The notes below the pieces were generated by a model that saw only the letters and a list, made by a program, of their open reading frames with translations, did not search any database and was not told the DNA's origin. From assembly GCA_020632155.1 (NCBI GenBank), contig JACKGE010000001.1, positions 314,285 to 378,284 of the forward strand: a stretch of 64,000 nt of DNA, written 5' to 3'. This DNA comes from Candidatus Nomurabacteria bacterium. Its GTDB lineage: Bacteria; Patescibacteriota; Minisyncoccia; Phycocordibacterales; UBA918. Positions within the stretch are counted from its first letter, which is position 1, and each line of letters opens with the position of its first letter. Of the stretch, positions 8,301 to 58,151 are shown one piece after another. The translations under genes and the position numbers were made by a program.

Positions 8301-8356
8301 CACAGCGCCCTCTTTATATAGTACGGTTAACCGTACTATATAAAGAGGGCGCTGTG
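8301..8356. terminator. 56-bp perfect palindrome between convergent genes. Likely a bidirectional terminator hairpin whose core is family-A palindrome TATAGTACGGTTAACCGTACTATA
   Basis: CACAGCGCCCTCTTTATATAGTACGGTT|AACCGTACTATATAAAGAGGGCGCTGTG is self-complementary end to end. Lies between the stop of 8021-8266 (+) and the stop of 8372-8782 (-). Confidence 0.6.
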
Positions 8357-8786: not shown

Positions 8787-8812
8787 TTATAGTACGGTTA
8801 ACCGTACTATAA
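8787..8812. promoter_or_regulatory. 26-bp perfect palindrome TTATAGTACGGTTAACCGTACTATAA; candidate operator 5 nt upstream of the TrpR-like gene start
   Basis: Direct reading. Same core as 8301-8356 and 55391-55412. Confidence 0.5.
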
Positions 8813-39841: not shown

Positions 39842-39864
39842 GAAATATATTTAAAATCTGACTT

Positions 39865-39939
39865 CTTACAGAAGCTGTTCAGGTTGTCGTCATTTCTTTT
39901 CGCTTCCTCAAAAAATGACAGGCAACCTCTTGCAAAAGT
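39865..39939 (+). repeat. Intergenic two-part repeat element, locus A (CTTACAGAAGCTGTTCAGGTTG ... GCAACCTCTTGCAAAAGT), ~80-150 nt upstream of ftsW
   Basis: Same bipartite motif at 52782-52848 and 54097-54166. First half alone at 53743-53764. Confidence 0.6.
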
Positions 39940-40016
39940 CTCCCAGACTTTTTCACTAGTTTTGTACCGTTGCAGTAGTCATTTTCACTGATTCAAGACA
40001 GCTTTTGCATTTTTAG

Positions 40017-41159
40017 GTGATATCACGCATCATGTACACCATGCGATGGTGGCGATTATTTGCTGGTTTTGACCTCTGGCTCGTGCTAGCAGCACTTGCG
40101 CTGACACTACTTGGTTTGGTGACCATGTACACCTTCCAAGGTGATAATGGATACTTCACTCGGCAAGCCTATTGGATCATACTCAGTCTTGGTGTCATGG
40201 TGGCATCGATGCTTCCAGACTACCGTTTTTTGCGTACCGGCAATACCGCTTTCTTTTTTTATGTTGTCTCGGCGCTCTCACTCATACTCGTGCTTTTTAT
40301 TGGTGAGGTCACGCTTGGGGCGCAAAGTCGTTTTAACCTTGGTTTCTTTTCACTTCAACCTTCTGACCCAGCCAAGCTCGTCTTAATAGCACTTTTGGCT
40401 AAGTATTTCAGCAAGCGCCATGAACTCATTGGAGATTTTCGGCACATCATTATCTCTGGTCTCTATGCTTTTGTGATCTTTGGTCTCGTATTCATTCAGC
40501 CAGACTTCGGCTCGGCTATCATCCTCTTTTTTATTTGGTTTGGCATGGTGCTGGTGGCTGGTATCAAATTGCGCCACTTGCTCCTCGTCTTTTTGCTCGG
40601 TGCAGTAGCGTTTGGTGGTATGTGGGAGTTTGCCTTTCAGGATTACCAGAAAGAACGCATTATGACCTTTCTTGATCCGCTGTCTGATATTCAAGGCGCC
40701 GGGTACAACGCCTATCAGTCAACTATCGCTGTTGGTTCAGGCCAGCTTTTAGGTAAAGGGATTGGCTACGGTACACAATCAAAACTCCAGTTCTTGCCGG
40801 AGTACGAGACGGACTTCATTTTTGCTGCCTTTGCCGAGGAGTGGGGTTTGGTGGGGGTGCTCGTGCTCTTTCTGCTCTTTGCAGTGGTTATTTGGCGGCT
40901 GCTCTACCATGCGACACTTGGCGCAACCAATTTTGAGCGTTTGTTTGCCACGGGCGTGGCCATTCTCTTTGTGAGCCACTTCTTTGTGCACATTGGTATG
41001 AATATCGGTCTCTTGCCGGTAACTGGTACAACCGTTCCATTCCTTAGTTACGGCGGCACACACCTTATGACCGAATTCATGGGCCTTGGCATTGTCATGG
41101 CGATGCGTAAATACACCACCAGACACTATCAAGCGCGCGACATTCTCATTACTGAGTAA
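40017..41159 (+). CDS. ftsW: SEDS-family peptidoglycan glycosyltransferase/flippase (FtsW/RodA)
   Basis: About 10 TM segments with conserved FtsW/RodA blocks (...FQPSDPAKLVLIALLAKY..., ...QSKLQFLPEYETDFIFAAFAEEWGLVG..., ...GLLPVTGTTVPFLSYGGT...). Confidence 0.85.
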   Translation: MISRIMYTMRWWRLFAGFDLWLVLAALALTLLGLVTMYTFQGDNGYFTRQAYWIILSLGVMVASMLPDYRFLRTGNTAFFFYVVSALSLILVLFIGEVTLGAQSRFNLGFFSLQPSDPAKLVLIALLAKYFSKRHELIGDFRHIIISGLYAFVIFGLVFIQPDFGSAIILFFIWFGMVLVAGIKLRHLLLVFLLGAVAFGGMWEFAFQDYQKERIMTFLDPLSDIQGAGYNAYQSTIAVGSGQLLGKGIGYGTQSKLQFLPEYETDFIFAAFAEEWGLVGVLVLFLLFAVVIWRLLYHATLGATNFERLFATGVAILFVSHFFVHIGMNIGLLPVTGTTVPFLSYGGTHLMTEFMGLGIVMAMRKYTTRHYQARDILITE

Positions 41160-41161
41160 GG

Positions 41162-42343
41162 CTACATGGCTGCCTCAGCCTCAAAACGTGGGGGAGTAGG
41201 GTCGTTTTCGTAGATGGCGAGGGTGCCACCGACCATTTTGGCAATGCTAAACACCTCACCGCGTGCGAGCGCTGCTGCAGCGTACGCTGCTCGCTGTGCC
41301 GTATCGTGATACAGCTCAGCAATTGCCTGTGCCAGCGCCTCACTGTCCCCTGAGGGGATTAATAACCCCTCAACTTTGTCTGTGATGATCTCGGGAATGC
41401 CACCCACATTGCTTGCAATCACGGGCACGCCAGCCTGACAAGCCTCAATGGGTACGTAGGGAAATCCCTCACTGCGTGATGGCAAAACAAACACATCAGC
41501 GGCCTTGAGATACTGCGCGGCTTCGTCGATTGCACCAAGTAAAAAGACATGTGTCGCCAGGCCATGTGTAGCAATAAGGGCCTGCAGATTGTTGCGCTCA
41601 TCCCCGTCGCTGATGATTAGGTGACGGATTGGTAGTTTGTCCGCTGCAAGTTTTGCCATAGCTTCTATAGCCACATTATGTTGTTTGACTGGATGAAGTT
41701 CACCAATGGTGATGCTCCAAAAATCATCTTGGTACTGCTCGAGTTCAGGTGCGTAACCCATTAGGACACGTCTCGAACGATCTTTGGACTGTAGTGTAGC
41801 GGCTGCGCGACCGTTGTATACAACGGTCATCTTACGCTCTGCCCCCAACCATGCAAGCTGGCTCTTCAGCGTATGAGAGACAGCAATCGTTTGATGGCTG
41901 CCAATGACCGTTAACCAATGGAATAGTTTTAGCACTATTCGAGATAGTGCATTACGATTTTCATTAAAGGCCCAGCCGTGAGCGGTGAAAATGATACGCG
42001 GCACACCAAGTATGCGGCCCATCATGACACCTAAGAGGCCGGCTTTGGAACTGTTGATATGAAAGATATCAGGGTCCTCGTCTTTGATAAGGGAACCAAT
42101 TTGCCAGAGTGCCTGCAGTTCTTTAATGATAGATATGTCTCTTTGTAGTGCAGGAATAGAAAGTACTTTAAGACCGGCAGCTTCCAGCTTTTCTGTAAGC
42201 GGCCCGTTGCCACCAAGCGCTACGACCACCTCATACTGTTCGGTTGGCAGGTTAGTAGCAAGATCATAGACATAGCGCTGGGCTCCGCCAAAGTTGGACT
42301 TTGTTATAAGAAATAAAACCTTTTTCTTTCTTTGTTCGTTCAT
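41162..42343 (-). CDS. Glycosyltransferase family 4 (GT-B)
   Basis: ...LGAIDEAAQYLKAADVFVLPSRSEGFPYVPIEACQAGVPVIASNVGGIPEII... (EX7E-type GT4 C-terminal domain). Confidence 0.8.
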   Translation of the reverse strand: MNEQRKKKVLFLITKSNFGGAQRYVYDLATNLPTEQYEVVVALGGNGPLTEKLEAAGLKVLSIPALQRDISIIKELQALWQIGSLIKDEDPDIFHINSSKAGLLGVMMGRILGVPRIIFTAHGWAFNENRNALSRIVLKLFHWLTVIGSHQTIAVSHTLKSQLAWLGAERKMTVVYNGRAAATLQSKDRSRRVLMGYAPELEQYQDDFWSITIGELHPVKQHNVAIEAMAKLAADKLPIRHLIISDGDERNNLQALIATHGLATHVFLLGAIDEAAQYLKAADVFVLPSRSEGFPYVPIEACQAGVPVIASNVGGIPEIITDKVEGLLIPSGDSEALAQAIAELYHDTAQRAAYAAAALARGEVFSIAKMVGGTLAIYENDPTPPRFEAEAAM

Positions 42344-42491
42344 TGGTGCCTATAGTAACACTATTTATAAGTGACTAGTTACGACACTTGCTTGCCCGCG
42401 CACTAACTGGTCAGACTGCGCAAAAGCGCGTTAATTCACAAGTGAATTAACAGTCTTACCGTTAGTGTGCGGGCTTGCTAATTTACCCTGA

Positions 42492-43865
42492 TTGGGTACG
42501 ATTATTCTCAATATGGGAGAACGAACCCGAGAACTCATTGTGCTGGTGACTGGTGACATCATTTGTTTTATCAGCGCTCTGTGGTTGACGCTTTTTGTCA
42601 GGTACTTTGAGTGGCCGTCTGCTGAGAATCTGGCTGTCCACCTCACTCCCTTTCTATTACTTTCCGGTGTGTGGGTATTCATATTTTTCAGCTCAGGCCT
42701 CTACGACAAACATACAACACTCCTTAAGCAGAGCCTGCGCACACGCATTGTCTACACTCAGATCGTTAACATGGTGGCAGCGGTCGTCATGTTTATTGTC
42801 TTTCCGTTTGGTATCGCCCCAAAGACGAACTTGGCTATTTACATGGTTATCTCCACCGCTCTCATTTTTTGGTGGCGTCTAAAGCTTACCAACCACTTCT
42901 CTCCAAAAGAACAGCACAAGGCCATTTTGATTGCGGATGGGCAAGAGGCAGTAGAGCTTGTTGATGAGATAAACAACAACGATCGTTATAACTACTACTT
43001 CGTGCGGATCATCGATGAGAGTGTAGCCAAAAATACACCCGAGTTTGAGTCAAAATTGCTGCAACTTATAGAGCGTGACCAAATATCTATGGTCGTCGCT
43101 AGTGCACATAGTAGTTACACCACCAAGATTATGCCGGTTATTTTTGACATGGCATTCCTCAACTTCCGCTCGACATTCCTTGATTTCACTAAGCTCTATG
43201 AAGACACCTTTGACCGCGAACCGATCTCGGCGCTTCAGCACGACTGGTTCATTACTCATGTTTCACAATCGCGTAGTCTTTTTTATGATCTCTTTAAGCG
43301 TATTGCCGATATCCTTGGAGCGATTGTGCTCCTCATACCATGCACGATTGTGTTTCCAATCGTAGCTGCGTTTATTAAATTGGAAGATAAAGGGCCACTT
43401 TTGTATCGAACCGAACGTGTTGGTCAATTTAATCGTCCCATCACCATATATAAGTTCCGTACGATGTCCGGCCGAGATGAGGGTACTGAGGCGCTCGCGA
43501 CCAAACATGTAGTCACCAAGATAGGCTCCATACTTCGCAAGACCCGCCTTGATGAATTGCCGCAATTATTCAACGTCCTACGGGGAGACCTTTCATTTAT
43601 TGGACCGCGTCCTGAGATGCCAGCACTTGCTGCGGTCTATGCGGAGCAGATACCGTATTACAATACGCGCCATTTCATTAAACCGGGGCTTTCTGGCTGG
43701 GCACAGATAAATGACCTTGATGCACCGCGCGGTGGGGTAGATATCGAACGCACCATGAGTAAGCTCTCGTACGATCTTTTGTACCTCAAGCGCCGCTCTC
43801 TCTGGTTGGATTTACAGATTGCTATCAAAACACTGGCTACGTTAATTTTGCGTACCGGCTCGTAA
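42492..43865 (+). CDS. Polyprenyl-phosphate glycosyl-1-phosphate transferase (WbaP/Bac_transf family initiating sugar transferase)
   Basis: N-terminal TM segments. C-terminal ...KRIADILGAIVLLIPCTIVFPIVAAFIKLEDKGPLLYRTERVGQFNRPITIYKFRTM...LDELPQLFNVLRGDLSFIGPRPEMP... Confidence 0.85.
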   Translation: MGTIILNMGERTRELIVLVTGDIICFISALWLTLFVRYFEWPSAENLAVHLTPFLLLSGVWVFIFFSSGLYDKHTTLLKQSLRTRIVYTQIVNMVAAVVMFIVFPFGIAPKTNLAIYMVISTALIFWWRLKLTNHFSPKEQHKAILIADGQEAVELVDEINNNDRYNYYFVRIIDESVAKNTPEFESKLLQLIERDQISMVVASAHSSYTTKIMPVIFDMAFLNFRSTFLDFTKLYEDTFDREPISALQHDWFITHVSQSRSLFYDLFKRIADILGAIVLLIPCTIVFPIVAAFIKLEDKGPLLYRTERVGQFNRPITIYKFRTMSGRDEGTEALATKHVVTKIGSILRKTRLDELPQLFNVLRGDLSFIGPRPEMPALAAVYAEQIPYYNTRHFIKPGLSGWAQINDLDAPRGGVDIERTMSKLSYDLLYLKRRSLWLDLQIAIKTLATLILRTGS

Positions 43866-43908
43866 AATCTCTCGCCGCGGGGGATGTAGTTTGTTATACT
43901 CGCTGCAC

Positions 43909-44697
43909 ATGTTAGTAGATGGAAAAGCTATTGCTGCGGACATCTATCAAGAAATTCGCAATATCATTAGTCATACAGGAGAACGGCCACACCTGACGGT
44001 TTTTACCTGTGCACCGAATTTTGAAACGCAAAAATATCTTAATCTGAAACGCAAGAAAGCTGCTGAGGTTGGTATCGCAACGAACGTCATCGAATTTCCC
44101 GCAGATATCACCACCGAAGAGGTGATAGCCTCAATTAACCACGCCACCATACAAACCGATGGGGTAATTGTGCAGCTACCGTTTCCGGCTGCTGTCGATA
44201 CTGACCGAGTACTCCAAGTCGTTCCGGTCAGTCTTGATGTTGATGCTTTGCGGTACGTGGACGCTGAACACCACACCGTACTACCACCAGTAGTAGGAGC
44301 AATCGATGAGATCGCGCAGCGTTACGCCGTGTCACTGTTAGGTCGCAATGTGGTAGTGGTAGGACAAGGTCGTTTAGTTGGTAAGCCAGCGGCCAAGTGG
44401 GCGACGGCACTGGGTGCTAACGTTACGGTAATTGATAAAGACACTGATGCTCCCGAGGTTTTATTTAAAGAAGCAGACATAATCATTTCGGGTGCTGGGA
44501 AAGCGGGTCTCATTAAACCAGAAATGGTTAAAGATGGAGTGATTATATTTGATGCCGGCACCTCTGAGGAGGGCGGGGAATTACGTGGTGATGTTGATCC
44601 TTCCTGCGCAGACAAAGCGCGTTTGTTTACACCTGTCCCAGGAGGGATTGGACCAATTACAGTAGCGGTATTGCTACGTAATCTGGTTCAGCACTAA
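43909..44697 (+). CDS. folD: Bifunctional methylenetetrahydrofolate dehydrogenase/cyclohydrolase
   Basis: MLVDGKAIAADIYQEI...GVIVQLPFP...VVVVGQGRLVGKPAA...PVPGGIGPITVAVLLRN. Start trimmed to the Met aligning with the FolD N-terminus. Confidence 0.85.
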   Translation: MLVDGKAIAADIYQEIRNIISHTGERPHLTVFTCAPNFETQKYLNLKRKKAAEVGIATNVIEFPADITTEEVIASINHATIQTDGVIVQLPFPAAVDTDRVLQVVPVSLDVDALRYVDAEHHTVLPPVVGAIDEIAQRYAVSLLGRNVVVVGQGRLVGKPAAKWATALGANVTVIDKDTDAPEVLFKEADIIISGAGKAGLIKPEMVKDGVIIFDAGTSEEGGELRGDVDPSCADKARLFTPVPGGIGPITVAVLLRNLVQH

Positions 44698-44749
44698 GAC
44701 GCTCGGGGTGGTGCACAGATAGAATAATGGTGGTATAGTACCTCATCGT

Positions 44750-46171
44750 ATGTCTACGTCTGAAACGAATACTAACGCGAGCGTCAAGTGGTTACGCATG
44801 TTTTATGCCCTTATTGTGCTCATTATTGGTGGCCTTATCGGGCAATTTGTGTATCTCAATACTACCAATGACAGTGCCAGCTACCCATTTAAACTAGGAC
44901 TTGATCTCGCTGGTGGCAGTCACTTGGTCTACGAGGCTGACGTTTCTGAAATTGCGCCAAGCGATGTGGGTGAACTCATGAATGTTTTGCGTGATGTCAT
45001 TGAACGCCGCGTGAACACCTTCGGTGTCTCTGAGCCAATCGTGCAGGTAGAGCAGAGTAGTTTCGTCAGTGACACCCCATCCGAACGCCTTGTTGTCGAA
45101 CTTCCGGGGGTAACTGACGTGGAGACCGCCATTGAAGAGATTGGCAAGACACCACTTCTAGAATTCAAGTTAGTTGATGAGGCAGCTGCAAATGCTACCG
45201 CAACATCAACCATTACGCTGGACGCCTCGTCTACTGAAGACGGTGCGGTAAGTGTGCCAGTAGAACAGCCAAATCCGTTTATTACTACTGGTCTTACTGG
45301 TCGTTATCTTGAGGGGGCACAACTTGAATTCCTAGGGTCAAATAATCAAGGCGGACTGGCCAATGAACCGGTGGTCTCGATTCGTTTCAATAGTGAAGGA
45401 GGGCAGCTATTTGAAGACATCACACGTGCGCACGTTGGAGAGAATCTCGCTATCTTCCTTGATGGGCAGCTCGTGTCAGCGCCACGTATCAACGAGGTTA
45501 TTGCCGGTGGTACTGCTATTATCTCTGGTAACTTTACTCCTGACGAAGCGCGTGATTTGGCAGAGAACCTCAACTTCGGTGCCTTGCCGGTACCGATTGA
45601 ACTGAAGAGTACCCAGACTATTGGTGCCACACTCGGCGGAGAAGTGCTTGGCAAAGGTATCGAAGCCGGTACCATTGGTCTTGGTTTGGTGATGTTATTT
45701 ATGCTGCTGTGGTATCGTTTGCCAGGGATTGTGGCGGGAGTGGCACTTCTTATGTATGTCGTTGTCATGTTGGCACTCTTCCAGCTCATTCCAGTAACAC
45801 TTACGGCGGCGGGCCTCGCTGGCTTTGTGCTCTCACTTGGTATGGCTGTTGATGCCAACGTGCTCGTATTTGAACGCATGAAAGAGGAGTATCGGGATGG
45901 CAAGGGAAGCAATGAAGCGGCCCAGATTGGGTTTGCTCGGGCTTGGAGCGCTATTCGTGATGGTAACGTGACCAGTATTCTCTCTGCTATCATTCTTTTT
46001 TGGTTTGGCACCTCAATGGTAAAGGGTTTTGCACTTGTATTCGGTATTGGTGTCATTGTCTCTATGCTGACTGCACTTACGGTTACCCGTACGTTACTGA
46101 TGGCGTTGCCGCGGACGCAACTTGATGGTGGCATCATGGGCAAACTCTTTAATTCAGGTTTTAAGCGATAA
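44750..46171 (+). CDS. secD: Protein translocase subunit SecD
   Basis: N-terminal TM, then LGLDLAGGSHLVYEADVS... periplasmic domain and a C-terminal 6-TM domain. Confidence 0.9.
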   Translation: MSTSETNTNASVKWLRMFYALIVLIIGGLIGQFVYLNTTNDSASYPFKLGLDLAGGSHLVYEADVSEIAPSDVGELMNVLRDVIERRVNTFGVSEPIVQVEQSSFVSDTPSERLVVELPGVTDVETAIEEIGKTPLLEFKLVDEAAANATATSTITLDASSTEDGAVSVPVEQPNPFITTGLTGRYLEGAQLEFLGSNNQGGLANEPVVSIRFNSEGGQLFEDITRAHVGENLAIFLDGQLVSAPRINEVIAGGTAIISGNFTPDEARDLAENLNFGALPVPIELKSTQTIGATLGGEVLGKGIEAGTIGLGLVMLFMLLWYRLPGIVAGVALLMYVVVMLALFQLIPVTLTAAGLAGFVLSLGMAVDANVLVFERMKEEYRDGKGSNEAAQIGFARAWSAIRDGNVTSILSAIILFWFGTSMVKGFALVFGIGVIVSMLTALTVTRTLLMALPRTQLDGGIMGKLFNSGFKR

Positions 46172-46173
46172 GT

Positions 46174-47148
46174 ATGCGTATCATTCAGTACAAGAACATA
46201 TTGATAGCACTTGGCCTTGCGGCCATGCTTGTTTCAGCTGGGCTGGTATTCAAATACGGTCTTAATCTCGGTATTGATTTTACTGGCGGCGCGCTCACAG
46301 AGGTGGTCTATGAGACGCAACCAGAGAAAGCGGAGCTGGAATCAAACCTTAGCTCTATGGAACTTGGTGATTATTCACTTCGGGTCACTACAGATGAGAC
46401 TGGACGAGCTGGGTACATTTTACGCAGTCGCGACCTTAGTGAGCCAGAGCGGGTGCAGGTACAAGAAGTCCTTACTGCGGCAGGCCAAGGGGGAGAGATA
46501 ACCCGCTTTACATCAATAGGTCCAGTTATTGGACAAGAGCTCAAAGATAAGGCGGTCTGGGCCATTGGCGGCGTGGTTGCGATCATCGTGCTGTATGTTG
46601 CTTTTGCGTTTGCAGGAGTAGGTAAGCCAGTTGGTTCGTGGGTGTACAGTTTTATCACTATCTTTGTACTTGTTCACGATGTTTTGGTGCCGTCAGCACT
46701 TATGAGTCTCCTTGGCAAATTTGCCGGTATTGAGGTTGATGTACTCTTTGTGATGGCGCTTTTGGCGGTACTCGGTTACTCAGTTAACGACACGATTGTG
46801 GTCTTTGACCGCGTACGTGAGAATCTCATTAAGTATCGACAGGAAAAGAAAAAAGTGCGCCGCGATGAGTTTGGTCAAAAACACGAAGAGATTGATTACA
46901 CTTTCGACAAGCCGTTCTCTGAGATCGTCGGCATCTCAGTCTCTGAGACCTTGCTCCGCTCTTTTAATACTTCATTCACTACGTTCTTGGCACTGGTGGC
47001 CCTCTACTTCTTTGGTGGTGATGTTACTAAGACGTTCGCACTGGTACTTATCGCTGGTGTAGTGGCTGGTACGTACTCGTCTATCTTCCTTGCCAGTCCA
47101 CTTTTGGTTTGGTACGCGTCGTGGCAAGAGAAAAAACAGTCTAGATAA
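46174..47148 (+). CDS. secF: Protein translocase subunit SecF
   Basis: ...GIDFTGGALTEVVYE... and a 6-TM C-terminus. Immediately follows secD. Terminator GCGCGAGGCCAATTGGCCTCACGCTTTTT at 47158-47186. Confidence 0.9.
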   Translation: MRIIQYKNILIALGLAAMLVSAGLVFKYGLNLGIDFTGGALTEVVYETQPEKAELESNLSSMELGDYSLRVTTDETGRAGYILRSRDLSEPERVQVQEVLTAAGQGGEITRFTSIGPVIGQELKDKAVWAIGGVVAIIVLYVAFAFAGVGKPVGSWVYSFITIFVLVHDVLVPSALMSLLGKFAGIEVDVLFVMALLAVLGYSVNDTIVVFDRVRENLIKYRQEKKKVRRDEFGQKHEEIDYTFDKPFSEIVGISVSETLLRSFNTSFTTFLALVALYFFGGDVTKTFALVLIAGVVAGTYSSIFLASPLLVWYASWQEKKQSR

Positions 47149-47205
47149 AAACAAAAGGCGCGAGGCCAATTGGCCTCACGCTTTTTGTTTGGTAGTATAC
47201 CGCCT

Positions 47206-47769
47206 ATGATAATTGGTTTAACAGGTTCGTTTGGAGCAGGGAAGGGAGTAGTTTCTGATTATTTGGTCGACACAAAAAAATTTGCACACTTCTCAGCTCG
47301 CACATTCATTATCGCAGAGATAGAACGACGTGGTTTGCCGATTGATAGAAACAGTATGATCGAGGTAGCAAATGATCTTCGTCACACCTACGGACCAACC
47401 TATATATTCGAACAACTGGTGGCCATGGCCAAAGAACATGGTGGTAACTGTGTGGTTGAGAGCATTCGAGCGGTTGCTGAAGCGCGGTACATGCAAGAGC
47501 AGGGAGGGGTCGTGCTTGGAGTAGATGCCCCGCCGGAGCTACGGTATGAACGTATCGTTAAACGAGGTAGTGAGACAGACCATGTGACTTTTGATGAGTG
47601 GCGCGCGCAGGAGGTGAGGGAGTCAAACCCAGATGACCCTACTAAGCAGGACATCTTTGGTGCCCTTAAAGAATCAGATGTCATTATTCAAAATGACGGT
47701 ACGGTTCCTGAGTTGCATACAAAGATAGAAGAATTTCTCGCACTGTACACGAACGACGCAGCAACGTAG
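47206..47769 (+). CDS. P-loop nucleotide/CoA kinase (dephospho-CoA kinase / dNMP kinase-like)
   Basis: MIIGLTGSFGAGKGVVSDYL (Walker A at the extreme N-terminus, as in CoaE). Start placed after the secF terminator. Confidence 0.45.
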   Translation: MIIGLTGSFGAGKGVVSDYLVDTKKFAHFSARTFIIAEIERRGLPIDRNSMIEVANDLRHTYGPTYIFEQLVAMAKEHGGNCVVESIRAVAEARYMQEQGGVVLGVDAPPELRYERIVKRGSETDHVTFDEWRAQEVRESNPDDPTKQDIFGALKESDVIIQNDGTVPELHTKIEEFLALYTNDAAT

Positions 47770-47820
47770 GCAAAAACAGATAACAAAAATAAGTCTTTGT
47801 ATCCTATAGGATACAAAGAC

Positions 47821-48210
47821 TTATTTTTGTTTCCACATTTCTTCTATCAATGAAAAAAGTAAAAAGTGAGTAGGGTATTTTTTCTTAAGATTTTCATACG
47901 AAAAAGGCGGGACAAATTTTGAGGCATGTTTTTTACTTACACGTTGGTTATTTTTTTGATAAGAAGAAACATATTCACTAAATTCATTTTCCAACCAACG
48001 ATTCATCTGAGCAAATGTGTTTGGGCTTACCTGAAGCCGGTCATTAATTTCAAAACGTGTTTTACCAGACAAAATCGCTTGAGCAATAAGTATACGTCGA
48101 CCAAGTGCGATTTTTTCGCGCTCAGTCAATAGTCGAACAATGGTTTCAACTTCATTGGCGGTTGCAATTTCGAAAGCTTGTAGGGCAAGCTCGTCAATGT
48201 CTTTTTTCAT
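47821..48210 (-). CDS. TrpR/YerC/YecD-like HTH DNA-binding protein (second paralog)
   Basis: ...LTEREKIALGRRILIAQAILSGKTRFEINDRLQVSPNTFAQMNRWL... Family-B palindrome abuts its start codon. Confidence 0.55.
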   Translation of the reverse strand: MKKDIDELALQAFEIATANEVETIVRLLTEREKIALGRRILIAQAILSGKTRFEINDRLQVSPNTFAQMNRWLENEFSEYVSSYQKNNQRVSKKHASKFVPPFSYENLKKKYPTHFLLFSLIEEMWKQK

Positions 48211-48234
48211 CTATGTATCATATATGATACATAG
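48211..48234. promoter_or_regulatory. 24-bp perfect palindrome CTATGTATCATATATGATACATAG (family B) directly abutting the start of the TrpR-like gene
   Basis: Direct reading. Same core as 6771-6798. Confidence 0.5.
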
Positions 48235-48263
48235 AGATATATAAAATAAGTGGAGGAGTTAAT

Positions 48264-48809
48264 CTAGTTTATTTTTGCGTAGTCGAAGAGAACATTGAAT
48301 GCCTTACACCACGTCAGCACATACGGGTATTCCGTCAGGTCTACATCAAGCGGCATGCCGTAGACGATGTCGCCTTTGTTGCCCTTAGCAGTGCCGAGGT
48401 CGATGATGTCAGTGGCCTCAAGGTCTTTTGATAGGTACACATGCAGGTCTGGGCCATTGGTGCCGTCGTAGTCTTGAAAGTAGAGCACTCGTTCTTCTGG
48501 ACTCTCAACCACGTCGACGGTGCCGCTGACAGGGTGTCCGCTTGTGCCCTTGATAGGAAACGGTCCTCGTGAGAGTGAACCATCAGCAGTCACTTCGGTG
48601 TGAACTGTAGGAGATTCTTCAGTTGAGTCGCTACTAGTCGCCGGCTGCTGCTTTCGTGCCGCGTCAACCTGTCGCTGGGCTTCAAGGCGAGCTTGGAGGG
48701 TCGGATCAAGGGTGTCTTTGACTTCTGTGTCGATAAAAAGTGGTGAAAAGGCCCACCACAGAAACGCCCCAAGGGCGATACACAGAAGGGCAAATAGTGT
48801 TTTCTTCAT
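48264..48809 (-). CDS. DM13-domain protein with an N-terminal TM anchor
   Basis: ...GPFPIKGTSGHPVSGTVDVVESPEERVLYFQDYDGTNGPDLHVYLSKDL... resembles the DM13 domain pattern. Confidence 0.45.
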   Translation of the reverse strand: MKKTLFALLCIALGAFLWWAFSPLFIDTEVKDTLDPTLQARLEAQRQVDAARKQQPATSSDSTEESPTVHTEVTADGSLSRGPFPIKGTSGHPVSGTVDVVESPEERVLYFQDYDGTNGPDLHVYLSKDLEATDIIDLGTAKGNKGDIVYGMPLDVDLTEYPYVLTWCKAFNVLFDYAKIN

Positions 48810-48894
48810 TACTTCAAGCTTACCATGACTTCGTTTGTAGTCGCGAAAACATGGTATTATTTAGCGACAAACTATTAACAACAAACAATTATTT

Positions 48895-49368
48895 ATGGAT
48901 ATTAAAGAGATTTTCAATTGGTTTCTTGATCCGGTCAAAAACCATTACTTTGATTTTGAGGGTCGAGCAACACGCCAACAGTTTTGGATGTTCGTACTCG
49001 TATACATGGTCATCTACATTGTAGCGATGATCGTATCTGAGGCACTGGCACTCTTGTTCTCGCTCGGGATCATGCTACCAGCACTTGGTATTACTGCGCG
49101 TCGTCTGCATGACATCGATATGAGCGGCTGGTGGCAGCTTATTGGTTTTATTCCGCTACTCGGTCTTATCATCATGATCGTTCTGACTGCAAAGCAGGGC
49201 ATGACTGGTGCCAACCGTTTCGGCGGCGATCCACGAACTGGTGCTGCTGGAACCGCAGATATGGCAACAGCCACATCAGCGGAGACACCAATGAATACTG
49301 TGACCGAGATGACTACACCTGAAGCCCCAGCTGTTGGAGACACTTCAGAGGATACTAAGTCAATGTAA
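48895..49368 (+). CDS. DUF805 (YhaH-like) inner-membrane protein
   Basis: ...FDFEGRATRQQFWMFVLVYMVIYIV... followed by further TM segments. Terminator AAAAACTCCGCC-ttcg-GCGGGGTTTTTTAT at 49384-49412. Confidence 0.6.
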   Translation: MDIKEIFNWFLDPVKNHYFDFEGRATRQQFWMFVLVYMVIYIVAMIVSEALALLFSLGIMLPALGITARRLHDIDMSGWWQLIGFIPLLGLIIMIVLTAKQGMTGANRFGGDPRTGAAGTADMATATSAETPMNTVTEMTTPEAPAVGDTSEDTKSM

Positions 49369-49418
49369 TCTAATGACTAAAAAAACTCCGCCTTCGGCGG
49401 GGTTTTTTATATTTTGGT

Positions 49419-50138
49419 TTAGTTATGAATACGCGTGCCAATAAAGTTCTCGCCGCGCAGGTATTTCTGTAGCTCCTCAAGATGGGCACCATTTATGGCA
49501 GCCACCTCAATGTCATGTGCCTCGGCTTCACGGGCAGCAACTGGATCAAACGGGGTAGAGAGTCCAGGATCCCAATCTTCGGGTATCAGTTTCCTAAAAT
49601 CAGTCCATGTTATATCCTCAATCTTTTCGGCGGTCTCATCACGGCGTGGATCAGCGGTATAGACGTAGTCGATGTTAGAAAGATTGATGACCTTTTTGGC
49701 ACCTACTTTTTCCGCGATTTGGATAGCGCGCAGATCCGTACTCCCACCAGGGCGATAACCAGCAGCAACGATGAGATTCGCCTCTGCGGGAGCATCAAGT
49801 ACGTCATCCGGATTGGTGACCATTACTCTGTGGGCGGTGTCTTTAAATATAGTACGTAGGAGGTGTCCATTAAGGCGGGTGGCGTGGATACCGATCCAGT
49901 CAAGGTCTTCATCATCGAGGCCGGCCACCGTATACGCTGCATCTTGGTATCGTCGCGCTGTTTTGCCACCACCGGCAATTATTACGAAGCGCCGTCCGTG
50001 TTCCTGTATCTCACTCTCAATAAGTTGCTTAAGGCCAGTAAGAAAAGAAGTGTCTATTTGGTCGGGGGCAATGAGTGAACCACCAACTGACATAACAATG
50101 GTTTCTTGCATACGGGTACATTGTACGTGCACAGACAC
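49419..50138 (-). CDS. pyrH: Amino-acid-kinase-family protein; archaeal-type UMP kinase-like
   Basis: ...IVMSVGGSLI...FVIIAGGGKTAR... and a C-terminal nucleotide-binding region. Confidence 0.55.
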   Translation of the reverse strand: MSVHVQCTRMQETIVMSVGGSLIAPDQIDTSFLTGLKQLIESEIQEHGRRFVIIAGGGKTARRYQDAAYTVAGLDDEDLDWIGIHATRLNGHLLRTIFKDTAHRVMVTNPDDVLDAPAEANLIVAAGYRPGGSTDLRAIQIAEKVGAKKVINLSNIDYVYTADPRRDETAEKIEDITWTDFRKLIPEDWDPGLSTPFDPVAAREAEAHDIEVAAINGAHLEELQKYLRGENFIGTRIHN

Positions 50139-50175
50139 AAAAGTCTAATCATTTCTGTTGTGTTACCATGCATTT

Positions 50176-50538
50176 ATGAGGTTAAACAAACCTGTATTTC
50201 TTTTAATACAACTGTTAATTTTACTGGGGGCTCTAGCTATTGTAGTTGTAGTCATGCTGTATGTGACCAGTTCTCGTGATGGGATGGTACATGATACAAA
50301 TACTCAGGCCGTCTTGAAACGACTAGAAACGTCTGCTTCTAGCTATCATCGACGCTTGGACAGTTACGAAGCCATGTGCGGAGACATCGGGGTTCCAGAG
50401 GGTTTTTACTGTACTGAAACAGGCTCTGATTTTTCTATTGAAACAACACTAACTGACGGTTCATATTACTGTACGGATAGTACCGGTTACTTTGGGCCTA
50501 ATTCTGGCTCAGTACAAGGTCGTAGCGCGTGTCGCTAG
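50176..50538 (+). CDS. Small secreted/membrane-anchored Cys-containing protein, hypothetical
   Basis: MRLNKPVFLLIQLLILLGALAIVVVVMLYV anchor followed by ~90 aa containing 5 Cys. Confidence 0.3.
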   Translation: MRLNKPVFLLIQLLILLGALAIVVVVMLYVTSSRDGMVHDTNTQAVLKRLETSASSYHRRLDSYEAMCGDIGVPEGFYCTETGSDFSIETTLTDGSYYCTDSTGYFGPNSGSVQGRSACR

Positions 50539-50577
50539 AGGTATGTCAACAGGAGAGCAAACCTTCCCGCGCTGGGG

Positions 50578-50605
50578 TTGCACTTTTAAAGGATATCTGT
50601 ATAAT
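50578..50605 (+). promoter_or_regulatory. Near-consensus sigma-70-type promoter (TTGCAC-16-TATAAT) for the 16S rRNA
   Basis: ggTTGCACttttaaaggatatctgTATAATactgg, about 445 nt upstream of the 16S 5' end. Confidence 0.55.
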
Positions 50606-51049
50606 ACTGGCCACTGTTCACGGGAGTGAAGAACGCGTTTTTAAAGCGCGTTTCGAGTTTGGGTAAGTTCCTACTCGCACTGTCGGAGGGAGCAGCGTTT
50701 TTCGACAATACTCATCTGCACACATCAGCCAACAATTTATTTTTGTCTGATGTGTGCTGGTGAGGGTCATGTGTTTCAAAAGATTAATTGGAGAAACAGA
50801 TGATTTGAATAGATCAAATCAATCGACCTTATGATTGATTTGAGTACCAAGTTGTAATCAATTTATTTTGGTTATGACGGTACGCATCAGCAAGACAATT
50901 GAAATTTGTTTTTTCTTTTGTCTTATCCTTTAGGAGGTTCATTGAAGAGCGCTAACAGAGTACAGCGCACCGGAATGATGCATCTGCATGATTTCGATAG
51001 TAGATGAACCCAGGTAAGAACTACTTTAAGTAGATCCAAACCTGTCTTA

Positions 51050-52503
<1,454 letters not shown>

Positions 52504-52631
52504 AATTGGACACGTCGTGGTTGCTCTGGTAACAGAGTGACAACTCGCGGCTAATTGGTCGGTCTTATGTGCCTCAATTGAGCATGTAAGAGGTAATGAT
52601 ACTTGAACCTTTAGCTAGTATTTGACTGTAG

Positions 52632-52942
52632 GGAAAGACCTACCCCAAAAAGGATAAGACAAAAGAGATAGCAAAGACAAGAAAGACGCTTACACCCTTG
52701 GTATAAGCGTCTTTCTTGTTGCGCAAGCACATACTTTTGTGACCCACTTTGAGAGGTTGGTCTACGCGAGCGAAAGCCCCGCTTACAGCGGCTGTTCAGG
52801 TTGATGTTATTTTTCATTCTTCAAAATAACTAGCAACCTCTTGCGAAGTGACATTTAGTCACTTCTCACCCCAAAAAGGATAAGACAAAAGAAGATGCAA
52901 ATAGACAAGAAAAAATGACCCAGCACTGCTGGGTCATTTTTT
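52632..52942 (+). repeat. Duplicated module downstream of the 16S. Direct repeat CCCCAAAAAGGATAAGACAAAAGA (52632 and 52869), each followed by a long terminator-like hairpin (52677-52718; 52901-52942)
   Basis: Direct reading. Hairpins CAAGAAAGACGCTTACACC-cttg-GTATAAGCGTCTTTCTTG and CAAGAAAAAATGACCCAGC-actg-CTGGGTCATTTTTTCTTG. Confidence 0.6.
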
Positions 52943-52968
52943 CTTGTTGTACAACCATTCTTTAGATG

Positions 52969-53499
52969 TTAATTCGGTCGTGGAGTTGGAGTCGGTACTT
53001 GGGAATCACTATAGGGGTTTGGCGTTGGGGTTGGAACTCGCGACTCGTCATATGGATTATTCGGATTTGCCGTCGGTACCACATTAGTGTTATCAGGCAG
53101 GTCGGTATAGTTATTGCTTGGGCTGAAATTGTTTGTATTTTCAGATCTACCAAAGAATTCAAACCCGACGCTGAAATCGAAGAATGTCCAAGCGCTGCCA
53201 TTTCTCCACGAGCCCTCTTCAACATAGTCGGAGTTAAGCGGATAATCATTATTGAAACCAAGTCCACTGATTAACAAGTTTACAATACCCCAAATGCTCA
53301 TCAGAAATACAAAGGCAGCAATGCCGTAGATGGCTTGTTGCTTGGCTTGCTCGCGTGCGGCCGCGTCATCTCCCTTAAGGATAAAGTACTGGAAGGTGCG
53401 GTAGAGAAAAAAAAGTAAACCAACCGCGAAGAGGAAGGGAATAAGGATACTGTTAATGAAGACACCAATAGCAACCAGATATTCTTGTAGGCTATTCAT
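52969..53499 (-). CDS. Small two-TM protein with VirB2/TrbC-pilin-like topology plus a Pro/Thr/Asn-rich C-terminal tail (putative)
   Basis: MNSLQEYLVAIGVFINSILIPFLFAVGLLFFLY-(basic loop)-AIYGIAAFVFLMSIWGIVNLLISGLGF. Tail ...PTPTPNPYSDSQVPTPTPRPN. Confidence 0.3.
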   Translation of the reverse strand: MNSLQEYLVAIGVFINSILIPFLFAVGLLFFLYRTFQYFILKGDDAAAREQAKQQAIYGIAAFVFLMSIWGIVNLLISGLGFNNDYPLNSDYVEEGSWRNGSAWTFFDFSVGFEFFGRSENTNNFSPSNNYTDLPDNTNVVPTANPNNPYDESRVPTPTPNPYSDSQVPTPTPRPN

Positions 53500-53784
53500 A
53501 CTGGCAATTTTACCGCAAAATGGTCTTTTTTGGGCTGCACAAGCGGGATAAATAGTTTACGTTTGTGGGGTTTTTTGGTAGTATTGCGGGACTTTTGCAG
53601 AGTTTGACGACGTTGAACCCTGTGTCCGGGCTTATGGCTCTGAAACATAAACTGCTTTATGTTTCAGCCGGTCGTGACGTCAGGAACGAATTGCCGATAT
53701 TTATGAGGCGATAGGGTGGCTAGACAAGAGTTCGACTGACTTCTTACAGAAGCTGTCCAGTTTTTCAAAATTTTTTAAATTTGT

Positions 53785-53858
53785 CCGGGCTTAGCTCAGT
53801 TGGCTAGAGCGTTCGACTGATACTCGAAAGGTCCAAGGTTCAAATCCTTGAGCCCGGA
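53785..53858 (+). tRNA. tRNA-Ile (anticodon GAT), stand-alone
   Basis: Acceptor CCGGGCT/AGCCCGG, D-arm GCTC-AGTTGGCTA-GAGC, anticodon stem TTCGA/TCGAA with loop CTGATAC, T-arm CAAGG-TTCAAAT-CCTTG, discriminator A. No encoded CCA. Confidence 0.8.
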
Positions 53859-54064
53859 CAAATTTCGAAAATTTCAGAAAAACTCTTGCGTTGCTCCAAG
53901 TGTTCGCAACTCACTCGAAAGGTCCAAGGTTGACCTAGAAATTAGGGAGAGTTTACTCGACCATAATTTCGAAAATACTCTTGTGGTGGACCTAGAAAAT
54001 AATGACCGAAGGGAATATATTTTCGAAAATACTCTTGTGGTGCAAATCCTTGAGCCCGGACAAA
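53859..54064 (+). repeat. tRNA-Ile 3'-fragment copies interleaved with ~54-nt tandem repeats (att-like remnant)
   Basis: Partial tRNA copy TTCGCAACTCACTCGAAAGGTCCAAGGTT (53903-53931). Exact copy of the tRNA 3' end CAAATCCTTGAGCCCGGACAAA (54043-54064). Direct repeats (A)ATTTCGAAAATACTCTTGTGGTG at 53965-53988 and 54019-54042. Confidence 0.7.
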
Positions 54065-54228
54065 GGCTTTTATCATGGTTGATTTTCGACTGCCCGCTTA
54101 CAGCGGCTAGTCAGATTGTCAGTATTTTTCACAAGTTCAAAATACTAGGCAACCTCTTGCGAAAGTGTCTGGTGCTCGGACAAAAAGTGAGCTTTATTTT
54201 TAAAGCGCTTTGCACTAGTATTACACCC

Positions 54229-57443: not shown

Positions 57444-58151
57444 ATGGAAGAGAAAGGAACGCTATCAATAGCTGCCACCCCGATCGGGAACCTTGAGGAC
57501 ATTACCTTGCGTGCTCTTCGAGTGCTCAAAGAAGCCGATTATGTACTCTGTGAAGATACGCGGGTAACGGGGAAGCTACTCAAACACTACAATATTGAAA
57601 CCAAGCTCAAACGCTATGACGCACACGCGAGCGAAAAAGTACACGAGCAAGTATTGGCTGATCTCGCAGCAGGGAAACATATTGCCTTGGTGAGCGATGC
57701 TGGTACGCCGAGCGTGAGTGATCCGGGGGTACTGTTGGTGTCAAACGCGCGCGCCGCAGGCGCGCGCGTTGAGACCATTCCCGGCCCTTCAGCGGTGACG
57801 GCAGCTTTCTCTATTGCCGGACTCACCGGCAACCAGTTCACTTTCTTGGGTTTTGTACCACAGAAAAAGGGACGTGAGACTTTTTTCAAAGCGCTGGCGG
57901 AGTATGATTATCCGGTTATTTTCTTTGAATCAACACACCGCATTATGAAAACCCTCCATGCTTTATCAGAAACGTATGGGGAAAATAGTACGATATATCG
58001 TACAATAATGGTGGCGAGAGAATTGACCAAAATGCATGAAGAAATGGTCCTAGGCACTCCCGAGGAGGTGTTGACCTATTTTGAAAGCTCTCCAGAAAAA
58101 CAGCGAGGGGAGTTTGTAGTCATTGTGGCCCCAGAAGGACGTGCGGTATAA
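57444..58151 (+). CDS. rsmI: 16S rRNA (cytidine1402-2'-O)-methyltransferase
   Basis: GTLSIAATPIGNLEDITLRALRVLKEADYVLCEDTRVTGKLLKHY...ARELTKMHEE. A 16-bp palindrome GTACGATATATCGTAC is embedded at 57987-58002. Confidence 0.85.
   Translation: MEEKGTLSIAATPIGNLEDITLRALRVLKEADYVLCEDTRVTGKLLKHYNIETKLKRYDAHASEKVHEQVLADLAAGKHIALVSDAGTPSVSDPGVLLVSNARAAGARVETIPGPSAVTAAFSIAGLTGNQFTFLGFVPQKKGRETFFKALAEYDYPVIFFESTHRIMKTLHALSETYGENSTIYRTIMVARELTKMHEEMVLGTPEEVLTYFESSPEKQRGEFVVIVAPEGRAV

Follow-up and report, generated by a model that had tools for sequence, protein, structure and literature searches.

A conserved three-hairpin intergenic element of Patescibacteria found in the loops of other hairpins

INTRODUCTION

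Several kinds of short bacterial repeats fold into hairpins. The REP/BIME and REPIN sequences of Proteobacteria, mobilized by RAYT, are short, non-coding, extragenic and multi-copy, and form hairpins in single strands. They occur singly, in tandem or head to head, also as mosaics with other motifs; the enzyme is not encoded beside the copies, which can persist for a long time. ERIC, BOX and Correia/NEMIS-type repeats are roughly 100 to 150 nt long and are transcribed with neighboring genes, and their functions are debated. BOX is modular (A/B/C). Each of these families is restricted to one genus or family, and we know of none reported in Patescibacteria. The PATEs, derived from IS200/IS605, have neither terminal inverted repeats nor target duplications, are recognized as single strands, and have different subterminal hairpins at their two ends as well as a short conserved 3' boundary sequence (TCAA in IS608). 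Finally, small structured insertions are found in tRNA loops, among them the archaeal bulge-helix-bulge introns and the group I introns at position 35/36 in Patescibacteria (PMC13011429).

The element described here, found in a 64-kb window (the whole stretch of DNA analyzed), shares traits with each of these. It has all of the REP/BIME/REPIN properties listed above, the mosaics in this case joining its core to M2 and terminator-like units. However, REPs are simple palindromes of 20 to 40 nt with a GTAG-type head, conserved within a genus or family, whereas the element is 85 to 100 nt (roughly 90) with three hairpins and about 25 conserved unpaired bases, spans two candidate phyla, and sits inside the loops of other hairpins. 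As generally described, the ERIC, BOX and Correia/NEMIS types resemble it in being intergenic, stably folded as RNA and present in either orientation, but ERIC and Correia have terminal inverted repeats and the others are simple modular repeats. Like PATEs, the element copies show no terminal inverted repeats and no target-site duplications, and the element has dissimilar end hairpins (P1 and P3) and a conserved 3' boundary, UCAC. In contrast to PATEs, its copies favor neither strand with respect to GC skew (22 versus 31), there is no conserved target sequence on the 5' side and no Y1 transposase or TnpB near any copy, and the middle hairpin, P2, is constrained to the same degree as the ends. 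The likeness to tRNA-loop introns lies in positions in an anticodon loop (after position 35) and a T loop; here the host sequences are not valid tRNA genes, most copies are outside tRNA-like contexts, and the element, which matches no Rfam intron, is far shorter than a group I intron.

RESULTS

The initial annotation described a bipartite repeat of about 75 nt. Its two parts are the conserved core of a larger non-coding unit comprised of three consecutive hairpins on one strand, which reaches about 25 nt past motif 2. The first hairpin, P1, has a near-invariant CUUACAG loop and is followed by the linker J1/2, nnGUnCA; P2 is a long hairpin, variable in sequence and length; the linker (U)CUUGC leads to P3, and P3 is followed by UCAC. 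The spacing between the conserved blocks changes with the length of P2 and P3. Where the core lies within a host hairpin, the 3' junction reads ...CUC-AC and then continues into the 3' strand of the host stem. A covariance model (CM) search of the window returned exactly four sites, the same four at which motif 1 (CTTACAGNNGCTGTYCAGRTTG) had been reported (39865, 52782, 53743 and 54097, all on the + strand; no matches in 100 shuffles):

39859..39958, +, c1, complete "solo" core in the VWA-ftsW spacer; CM match of 91.2 bits over the full model, and fold
52776..52871, +, c2, complete solo core; CM match of 87.8 bits
53737..53916, +, c3; CM match of 52.2 bits to model positions 1-91, interrupted by a 90-nt insertion in the loop of P2
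53737..53784, +, c3 5' half: P1 (53740-53752), J1/2 CUGUCCA and the 5' strand of an extended AT-rich P2 stem
53785..53859, +, tRNA-Ile(GAU) gene (ARAGORN; Rfam tRNA, 72 bits)
53860..53916, +, c3 3' half: 3' strand of P2, CUCUUGC (53883-53889), P3 GUUGC...GCAAC and UCAC (53911-53914)
54091..54183, +, c4, upstream of murD; CM match of 55.3 bits, with mismatches in P3

In c1, P1 occupies 39862-39874 (loop 39865-39871), J1/2 39875-39880, P2 39881-39928 and P3 39931-39955; this copy ends in UCAC and has no closing helix. Copy c2 lies 270 nt downstream of the 16S rRNA, flanked by two paralogous terminator-like long hairpins (52642-52720 and 52868-52950, family D15). Other details of the first description needed revision. 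Motif 2 is present as described at 39920 and 54147, but at 52832 only with a 1-nt deletion. The site at 53743, listed as motif 1 alone, is a complete copy whose second half (CTCTTGC, hairpin and TCAC) lies at 53883-53914, past the tRNA-Ile gene. Copies given as 85 to 90% identical are in fact 57 to 68% identical over the whole element, and motif 1 alone agrees at 15 to 20 of 22 positions. The distances to ftsW and murD, described as equal, are only roughly alike: motif 1 is at -132 from the murD start and, depending on the start chosen for ftsW, at -152 (GTG 40017), -167 (ATG 40032) or -176 (ATG 40041). The string CACTAGT does occur at both copies, though not equivalently: at 39954 its CAC belongs to the 3' UCAC of the element, and at 54213 it lies about 45 nt further downstream, overlapping a TAGTAT -10-like box 7 nt before the murD ATG.

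At the tRNA-Ile locus the element and tRNA sequences are nested. The apex of the long AT-rich P2 stem of c3 is the tRNA-Ile gene, standing in the place of the P2 hairpin (AAATTTGTCC, the tRNA, then GGACAAATTT). On the 5' side of c3 is TTCGACTGA, a match to the anticodon stem and loop of tRNA-Ile that extends to position 35, and directly 3' is TCGAA..., a tRNA-Ile-like 3' half. Copy c4 retains P1 and P2 intact, but in place of P3 and UCAC, both degenerate, it has sequence like the tRNA-Ile 3' end (GCTCGGACAAA); a degenerate tRNA-Ile 5' half precedes it at 54065-54092. We read c3 as a core lodged in a tRNA-Ile-like scaffold, at the anticodon loop, with the real tRNA-Ile gene inside its own P2, and c4 as a decaying copy within another scaffold of this kind. 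The outer tRNA-like scaffolds could not yield a functional tRNA, since they have no valid D arm and carry further insertions.

A scan for the exact 22-base pattern gave 40 loci beyond the window where by our calculation about two were expected by chance. Essentially all are in Patescibacteria (CPR), in Saccharimonadota and Parcubacteria-group lineages; the source MAGs are Saccharibacteria, Kaiserbacteria, Paceibacteria and Minisyncoccia, lineages that NCBI places in separate candidate phyla. To our knowledge this conservation is far deeper than that of any known bacterial repeat family. No viral contig matched the element, and no Rfam 15 family was matched by it, even at E<=10; on the latter basis we consider the element not previously described.

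A structured, RNA-like fold is strongly supported, and covariation among the copies is strong. RNAalifold of 45 copies yielded the three hairpins, with compensatory changes in 15 of 27 pairs. The CM alignment comprises 66 copies, 45 with the exact pattern (42 from the genome scan and the three matching window copies) and 21 found by the model alone; because those 45 contain the pattern, the invariance of its 22 positions is partly by construction. The 21 model-only copies still keep CUUACAG, GU.CA, CUUGC and UCAC, with occasional changes. Over the 66 copies, 96.3% of cells are paired, compared to 78.2% in shuffles and 42 to 53% with partners slid, percentages that are inflated because the CM alignment is fitted to the structure. 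Both-sided changes occur in 23 of 27 pairs, and the covariation score is 0.468 versus 0.142 when shuffled. The outer stem of P2 swaps wholesale among subtypes (AGGUUG/CAACCU, CACUCAUUGG/CCAAUGAGUG and others). As to strand, the long form, a scaffold of the M2 long-hairpin family plus the core (about 200 to 230 nt), folds better on the + strand in eight of eight cases, with a consensus energy of -50.9 versus -32.1 kcal/mol and 44 G-U versus 13 A-C pairs; one U-G pair, present in 47 of 66 copies, alternates with U-A and C-G. The strand assignment rests on the long form and this pair, because the core alone folds slightly better in reverse by RNAalifold (-24.4 versus -17.4). The folded strand is probably RNA.

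Presence and absence at homologous sites indicate gain or loss. The VWA-ftsW spacer is 175 nt in the window versus 29 to 85 nt in four syntenic relatives (L041 to L044), all of which lack the element at this site, and the L038 copy is likewise absent in relatives. Truncated, nested and head-to-head copies occur, as do tandem arrays in which the units abut exactly. Hairpins that carry the core in their loops are tRNA-like anticodon and T arms (including the tRNA-Ile-like anticodon loop), a terminator, and M2. The same genomes contain both empty M2 hairpins (GAGCCGTACTTT-TTGTACGGTGA) and filled ones (GAGCCGTACTTGTTG, a core of 81 to 84 nt, TCACGGTGA), and the two forms are flanked by homologous sequence on either side. 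Comparison of these filled and empty paralogues, and of the orthologous sites, suggests at the sequence level that the core was inserted. Of the three readings first offered, a miniature repeat element is therefore the closest, being multi-copy, intergenic, gained and lost, in tandem and within hairpin loops; it is not a classical MITE, since it lacks terminal inverted repeats and target-site duplications.

The copies are placed independently of neighboring genes. Their orientation to these is random over 66 copies (19 antisense between genes, 18 sense), and only about half have a same-strand gene downstream. The downstream and flanking genes are unrelated (dnaE, thrS, tpiA, pgk, murJ, ABC-F, pilins, glycosyltransferases). 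Among 145 flanking ORFs, no family is matched by more than three members, and the 25 most frequent families include no transposase, integrase or reverse transcriptase. The other two initial readings, a shared promoter or regulatory module of cell-envelope genes and a cis-regulatory leader RNA, are not supported, in view of the spacers of the relatives, the random orientation and the unrelated flanking ORFs; of the leader proposal, the structured fold stands.

DISCUSSION

The explanation we prefer, held at about even confidence, is that the element is a non-autonomous, structured insertion module of Patescibacteria, kept as a single-stranded (probably RNA) fold. Copies would land in intergenic DNA, characteristically in hairpin loops that already exist, whether of terminators, of tRNA-like anticodon and T arms or at the apex of M2 long hairpins. 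With the host stem as a fourth helix, the complete structure would be a four-way junction. A factor encoded at another locus may act in trans to recognize the invariant loop and linker bases and to copy or maintain the module, and selection, rather than the persistence of neutral debris, would keep the copies. Counting against this reading, the 145 flanking ORFs revealed no enzyme able to mobilize the module, and neither terminal inverted repeats nor target-site duplications were seen.

A leader or riboswitch for ftsW and murD has in its favor the conserved fold and the two window copies 80 to 180 nt upstream of these genes on the same strand; already contradicted by the context data set out above, it is highly unlikely; moreover, a terminator and a convergent gene come after c2, and there is a tRNA within c3. 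Equally improbable is a shared sigma-70-type promoter module. The element does contain TTGC and TTGTC strings resembling -35 boxes, and c4 one weak consensus match. However, the promoter reading fits poorly with covarying stems, for which a promoter has no need, and with the variable spacing of the conserved blocks; the would-be -10 positions read UCACNN or CUGGCA, there is no TAnnnT peak at any fixed offset from the core, and better candidates, the TAGTAT boxes at 53579 and 54216, are outside the element. An intron-like or intervening-sequence-like RNA that invades hairpin loops, and is removed (by self-cleavage or by host nuclease and ligase) or tolerated in the host RNA, is doubtful but somewhat better placed. 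It would explain the intact tRNA-like "exon" pieces around the element; in each of two genomes that share 89% 16S identity, these pieces match that genome's functional tRNA-Ile exactly. Also consistent with it are the position of the core in the anticodon and T loops of tRNA-Ile-like scaffolds, the exact abutment of tandem units, the topology of three helices and a host stem with conserved linkers, typical of small ribozymes, and the unusual tRNA introns known at position 35/36 in Patescibacteria (PMC13011429). Against this, the outer scaffolds could give no functional tRNA, most copies are outside any gene, no Rfam ribozyme or intron family is matched, and the hammerhead core (CUGANGA/GAAA) is absent.

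A structured RNA domain with a host function (a platform for protein binding, a scaffold for RNA processing or a component of a small RNP), spread by vertical descent and ordinary duplication, is possible, if on the unlikely side. The long form would then be an independently transcribed ncRNA gene, and c3 would organize the pre-tRNA-Ile transcript, its P2 stem surrounding the tRNA in the way that processing stems surround rRNA. The + strand preference of the long form, although it is usually antisense or convergent to its neighbors, implies transcription of its own, and several long forms have -10-like hexamers immediately beyond their closing helix. Conservation of the loop and linker bases extends over two candidate phyla. 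The tRNA-Ile unit, including a leader of about 210 nt that contains a TGGTAGTAT extended -10 box, aligns at 73.6% between genomes sharing only 89% 16S identity. In contrast, there is no fixed-distance promoter upstream of the core and no excess of same-sense terminators downstream (14/64 versus 15 to 20/64 in controls), relatives lack the element at homologous sites, tandem, truncated and nested copies resemble repeat-element behavior, and cores 91% identical sit inside scaffolds 54% identical. Syntenic copies bear on both this reading and the insertion module: they are 92.7% identical where adjacent coding DNA is 71 to 75% identical, and since they last between species and are better kept than neighboring genes, a host-functional RNA fits them at least as well as a selfish element does. 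The P3 stems of that syntenic pair differ, by eye, by one paired change, GAACTGGG/CCCATTTC versus GAAAAGGG/CCCTTTTC.

A three-hairpin element with covarying stems

Motif 1 and motif 2, the two halves of the bipartite repeat described in the initial annotation, occur in the window four and three times, respectively, always on the + strand. The repeat is real, as shuffled sequence contains no motif matches, and the gene names that came with it, ftsW and murD, are correct. The window is part of a Patescibacteria (CPR) genome, and relatives of its RodA, at 76-84% identity, are from CPR metagenome bins. Copies and neighboring genes are arranged as follows.

32291-36164, 23S-5S rRNA genes
39841, end of a VWA-domain gene
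39859-39958, + strand, element copy c1, in the VWA-ftsW spacer
40017-40041, start of the FtsW/RodA-family gene
51047-52506, 16S rRNA gene
52776-52871, + strand, element copy c2, 3' of the 16S
52969-53499, minus strand, T4SS-pilin-like gene
53737-53916, + strand, element copy c3
53785-53859, sole tRNA-Ile(GAU) gene (ARAGORN, Rfam)
54091-54183, + strand, element copy c4, upstream of murD
54229, start of murD
55565, start of murC

The 23S-5S pair comes first and is not linked to the 16S gene. Among the window copies the first hairpin, P1, differs by compensatory changes (CTTC-TTACA-GAAG in two copies, CCGC-TTACA-GCGG in the other two), and the region between the motifs pairs as GTCATTT/AAATGAC, GTTATTTT/AAAATAAC or AGTATTTT/AAAATACT.

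Searching one genome from each prokaryotic species for the pattern CTTACAGNNGCTN{30,60}GCAACCTCTTGC gave 40 loci, where about 2 are expected by chance (22 fixed bases, 31 gap lengths, 1.2e12 positions). Copies from other genomes show a further hairpin, the third, 3' of motif 2, with a conserved UCAC after it. With a covariance model built on 44 copies, the loci (429 kb) plus the window yielded 66 copies at E<1e-5, of which 21 lack the search pattern, the majority having been ascertained through the exact pattern. RNAalifold folds the element as three hairpins in succession. Standard pairs fill 96.3% of the cells in the 66 copies, compared with 78.2% after shuffling and 42-53% with slid partners, and 23 of the 27 pairs change on both sides; this alignment was fitted to the model, which favors the structure, and a MAFFT-only alignment gave the same helices. 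The conserved fold for which a covariation test had been suggested is thereby strongly supported, with the covariance model and RNAalifold. The outer stem of the long second hairpin, P2, comes in at least two covarying subtypes. Near-invariant in all copies are the P1 loop CUUACAG, GU.CA in linker 1, (U)CUUGC in linker 2 and the 3' UCAC; these bases suggest that the element, whether a mobile module or a host RNA domain, has a conserved protein or RNA partner.

Distribution among Patescibacteria

Patescibacteria genomes are tiny and streamlined, and to our knowledge almost nothing is known of their non-coding RNA and repeat content. The pattern matches come from Saccharibacteria, Kaiserbacteria, Paceibacteria, Minisyncoccia and "Patescibacteria group" MAGs; Kaiseribacteriota and Saccharimonadota are separate candidate phyla in NCBI. 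Each genome tends to hold not one but several copies. Five element-bearing contigs (L002, L007, L009, L025 and L028) belong to MAGs labelled Acidimicrobiales, Azotimanducaceae or Patiriisocius, and an M23 peptidase homologue also carries the Acidimicrobiales label. Because a RodA from an Azotimanducaceae-labelled MAG is 78% identical to that of the window, CPR mis-binning is suggested, and the element contigs in MAGs with non-CPR labels may be mis-binned Patescibacteria contigs. A viral origin was rejected, as IMG/VR contigs gave zero pattern matches.

At the gathering threshold, Rfam 15 reported rRNA and tRNA alone in the window and 18 loci; at E<=10, the four window copies, two long forms and a pair of M2 hairpins (both described below) drew scattered sub-threshold chance matches. 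The element combines abundant compensatory changes and sequence conservation across candidate phyla with the absence of an Rfam 15 family. No description of it was found in the searchable literature, and a paper on group I introns in Patescibacteria tRNA genes (PMC13011429) leaves it unmentioned. The covariance model lets annotators flag element sites instead of calling promoters or leaders there.

The element sits in loops of other hairpins

In a subfamily from Kaiserbacteria and relatives, the core caps a hairpin of about 200-230 nt (the long form), with arms of about 30 paired bases and many compensatory changes. The + strand of the long form folds better in eight of eight cases, with 44 G-U against 13 A-C pairs. 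For the core alone, folding energy gives the + strand no advantage; one conserved U-G pair, alternating with U-A and C-G, favors it.

A second family of long hairpins, M2, is an element in its own right, with the apex GAGCCGTAC-TTTTT-GTACGGTGA, a conserved 5' motif CAGATGC.AGGCGCGCAAGGAAA and a 3' motif GCAACAAMGCAGAT; it is conserved in both CPR lineages and has no Rfam 15 match. Many M2 hairpins lack the core. When filled and empty M2 hairpins of the same genomes are compared, the filled ones have 81-84 nt inserted at the apical loop, between flanks that are homologous on both sides, "insertion" being understood here from comparisons of paralogues and between species. The cores are 91% identical, against 54% for the scaffolds, and filled and empty scaffolds are intermixed by similarity. 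The window holds an M2-type hairpin of its own.

28743-28836, minus strand, M2-type long hairpin (nhmmer E=1.7e-8 against the M2 profile)

It reads TTAGATGCGAGGCGTGCGAAGAAAA...GGTGAAC-TATTCT-GTTCAGTGA...GCACAACGACGCAGATGAAG, with AATCTTAATTT/AAATTAAGATT as its closing stem and a T run after it, and lies antisense in the 155-nt spacer of two + strand ORFs (28111-28734 and 28889-29356), which may or may not be counterparts of rplJ-rplL, genes that abut in the relative L043.

Three further host sites are of other kinds.

L038, terminator hairpin, AAAAAAAGACCC..CTGGG..[core]AC CCCAG..GGGTCTTTTTT
L018, T loop of a tRNA-Ile 3' fragment
Window, copy c3, anticodon loop of a tRNA-Ile-like scaffold

The core at the L038 locus is missing in relatives, whose spacers are too diverged for a precise empty site to be defined. 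In every hairpin host the 3' junction is the same: ...CUC|AC, after which the host stem resumes with its 3' strand, and element and host stem together make a four-way junction. A universal closing helix was rejected, since flank-flank duplex energies are no better than after permutation of the flanks (p=0.15); only copies lodged in a host hairpin have the fourth helix. Complementary flanks, found in about one-third of the copies, differ from copy to copy and belong to the host hairpins; c1 and c2 have no closing helix. Some copies form tandem arrays (in L025, where the period is 85 nt, in L008, and in L001, beside an assembly gap), some are truncated and some are paired head to head. A location in hairpin loops is unusual among bacterial repeats, and the hosts here include tRNA-shaped scaffolds around an essential tRNA-Ile gene. 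This habit offers a concrete way into the question of how Patescibacteria build and remodel RNA structures between genes.

A nested tRNA-Ile unit

Around the real tRNA-Ile gene of the window lie pieces identical to tRNA-Ile, in the correct order.

53590-54064, nested tRNA-Ile unit (in L018, 660-1100)
~53637, acceptor 5' strand piece
53715-53739, D-loop region and TTCGACTGA
following the D-loop piece, c3, with the real tRNA-Ile gene in its P2
53913-53931, tRNA-Ile piece ACTCGAAAGGTCCAAGGTT, 3' of c3
53932-54042, tandem pair of units (57 and 54 nt), GACCTAGAAA...TTCGAAAATACTCTTGTGGTG, lodged in the outer 3' fragment of tRNA-Ile, at its T loop
54043-54061, CAAATCCTTGAGCCCGGAC, last outer tRNA-Ile piece

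Each of the three loops in the outer, tRNA-Ile-like sequence is interrupted by an insertion, and the arms of a long outer helix, GTCCGGGCT/AGCCCGGAC, embrace the whole unit. Having no valid D arm, the outer scaffold is not itself a tRNA gene. The 3' parts of the tandem units resemble the 3' half of c3, and the units look like a decayed, partly duplicated element. Copy c4 lies in a second, more decayed tRNA-Ile-like scaffold.

The distantly related Saccharibacteria MAG of L018 (16S 89% identity; MurD 59% over 116 residues) has a unit of the same architecture, with outer pieces matching its own tRNA-Ile. Window and L018 units align over 311 nt with 73.6% identity; some 210 nt of this is leader, which contains the extended -10 box TGGTAGTAT. 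Because architecture and sequence are shared at this distance, the unit is under constraint. A putative extended -10 box, TGGTAGTAT (53576-53584), precedes a leader of about 195 nt with a covarying hairpin, CTGAAACATAAA-CTGC-TTTATGTTTCAG. At least c3 is predicted to be transcribed along with the tRNA, in sense orientation.

In the CPR loci, duplicates of at least 10 nt, direct or inverted, lie within 700 nt of nine out of 15 tRNA genes (L006, L015, L018, L020, L022, L027 and L037). The duplicates mostly copy the tRNA's own T arm and acceptor 3' end; many build a large palindrome with the terminator inside it, and some adjoin a core element.

Regulatory readings

The copy upstream of ftsW had been taken as possible regulation of that gene. 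In the four relatives with the same VWA-ftsW-glycosyltransferase synteny (L041-L044), the corresponding spacer is 29-85 nt and contains no element; across 76 kb, these relatives have one good copy, located elsewhere. Nor does a leader or other cis-regulatory role hold for the family: flanking genes fall into the orientation classes (-,-) 19, (+,+) 18, (+,-) 8 and (-,+) 5, as at random. With gene contexts from a simple ORF caller, the nearest genes are unrelated housekeeping genes, and no Pfam family is found in more than 3 of the 145 flanking ORFs. A riboswitch, 5' leader or 3'-UTR element was rejected on these three grounds. As to a promoter, the spacing of the blocks varies and the stems covary; TAnnnT upstream has no peak at any offset (at most 5 of 66), and a promoter consensus scan was likewise without signal, so that a sigma-70 promoter, with hexamers at a fixed 16-18 nt and a fixed -10, was dismissed. 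The regulatory and promoter readings are essentially excluded, and the ftsW and murD copies should not count as evidence for a cell-envelope regulon.

Same-sense terminators are not in excess 3' of the core, and a typical small-RNA gene consisting of the core alone seems unlikely, as no fixed promoter or terminator was found. The long form, as noted, prefers the + strand, and it has -10-like boxes nearby.

Mobile module or host RNA

The suggestion of a miniature repeat stood in part: the element is multi-copy and non-coding and differs by presence and absence, but it has neither terminal inverted repeats nor a target-site duplication. Direct repeats flank neither c1, c2 nor the other copies inspected, and the ends of the element are different hairpins (P1 and P3-UCAC). 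In the 8-20 kb around each copy, no transposase, integrase or reverse transcriptase is among the 25 most frequent families of flanking ORFs. A search for an associated protein, by clustering 408 ORFs and comparing the 145 flanking ORFs with Pfam, returned housekeeping genes only. Local GC skew, as a proxy for replication strand, places 22 copies on the G-rich and 31 on the C-rich strand; an IS200/IS605-type single-strand element was rejected for lack of orientation bias. The closest known kinds are REP/BIME/REPIN mosaics, structured repeats of the ERIC/BOX/Correia type and the IS200/IS605-derived PATEs. The element is set apart from all of these by its three hairpins, by having no inverted terminal repeats, by its site in the loops of hairpins and by its sequence conservation across candidate phyla.

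We give about an even chance to a non-autonomous structured insertion module that would be kept as a single-stranded, probably RNA, fold. The main rival, which we hold to be rather unlikely, is a host-functional RNA domain that has spread by ordinary duplication. Syntenic copies across species are 92.7% identical, against 71-75% for the adjacent coding DNA, and a second syntenic pair has 84% identity over 168 aligned nt with flanks that are not alignable. On the other side stand the presence/absence differences: c1 as well as the L038 copy is missing in relatives, and M2 is both filled and empty. An intron-like or ribozyme-like element seems improbable. A group I intron (P3-P9, at least about 200 nt) was rejected, the core being 85-100 nt and mostly intergenic, with no Intron_gpI match at E<=10. 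The hammerhead (CUGANGA ... GAAA ... UH) resembles the element in three-helix topology only; here the linkers are nnGUnCA and (U)CUUGC, and no Rfam hammerhead match was found.

Finally, a new class of hairpin-loop-invading RNA element, intron- or ribozyme-like, which would copy itself into loops and then be excised or act catalytically, is improbable in our judgment. Its targets would be loops in structured RNAs or in the genes encoding them, namely those of tRNA-shaped scaffolds, of terminators and of M2; the invariant CUUACAG with the GU.CA, CUUGC and UCAC linkers could be the active or recognition core, and the nested tRNA-Ile unit might be a functional product of invasion.

A tRNA or tRNA-like gene was discarded, given that ARAGORN and Rfam report genuine tRNAs alone and the element has no tRNA signature sequences. 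T-box, attC, boxA antitermination and retron were set aside because their defining features are absent, as judged by sequence resemblance.

Other features of the window

The 23S gene (32291-35961) is 3671 nt long, compared with a 2925-position model, and has about 750 nt of insertion(s); the syntenic relatives L041 and L042 have LAGLIDADG and GIY-YIG homing-endonuclease ORFs in the region matching it. About 370 nt before the 16S gene begins, 39 nt (50642-50680) match an internal 23S segment (35005-35043, containing GGGTAAGTTCC) at 72% identity; the resemblance may be due to an rRNA fragment or to chance. Two perfect or near-perfect palindromes recur, TATAGTACGGTTAACCGTACTATA (24 nt; 8317-8340, 8788-8811, 55390-55413 and 57984-58007) and TATGTATCATATATGATACATA (22 nt; 6774-6795, 47796-47817 and 48212-48233); an operator-like role is possible, as is a small hairpin repeat. 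Copy c2 is flanked by two paralogous units.

52642-52720 and 52868-52950, ACCCCAAAAAGGATAAGACAAAAGA..GCAAA..GACAAGAAA, hairpin of about 20 bp, then TTTCTTGTTG

The interiors of the two hairpins differ compensatorily, and the units look like bidirectional terminators. TAGTAT, the hexamer of the putative tRNA-Ile promoter (53579-53584), recurs as a -10-like box (within 54216-54231) that ends 7 nt 5' of the murD ATG, a position that suggests a leaderless murD mRNA.
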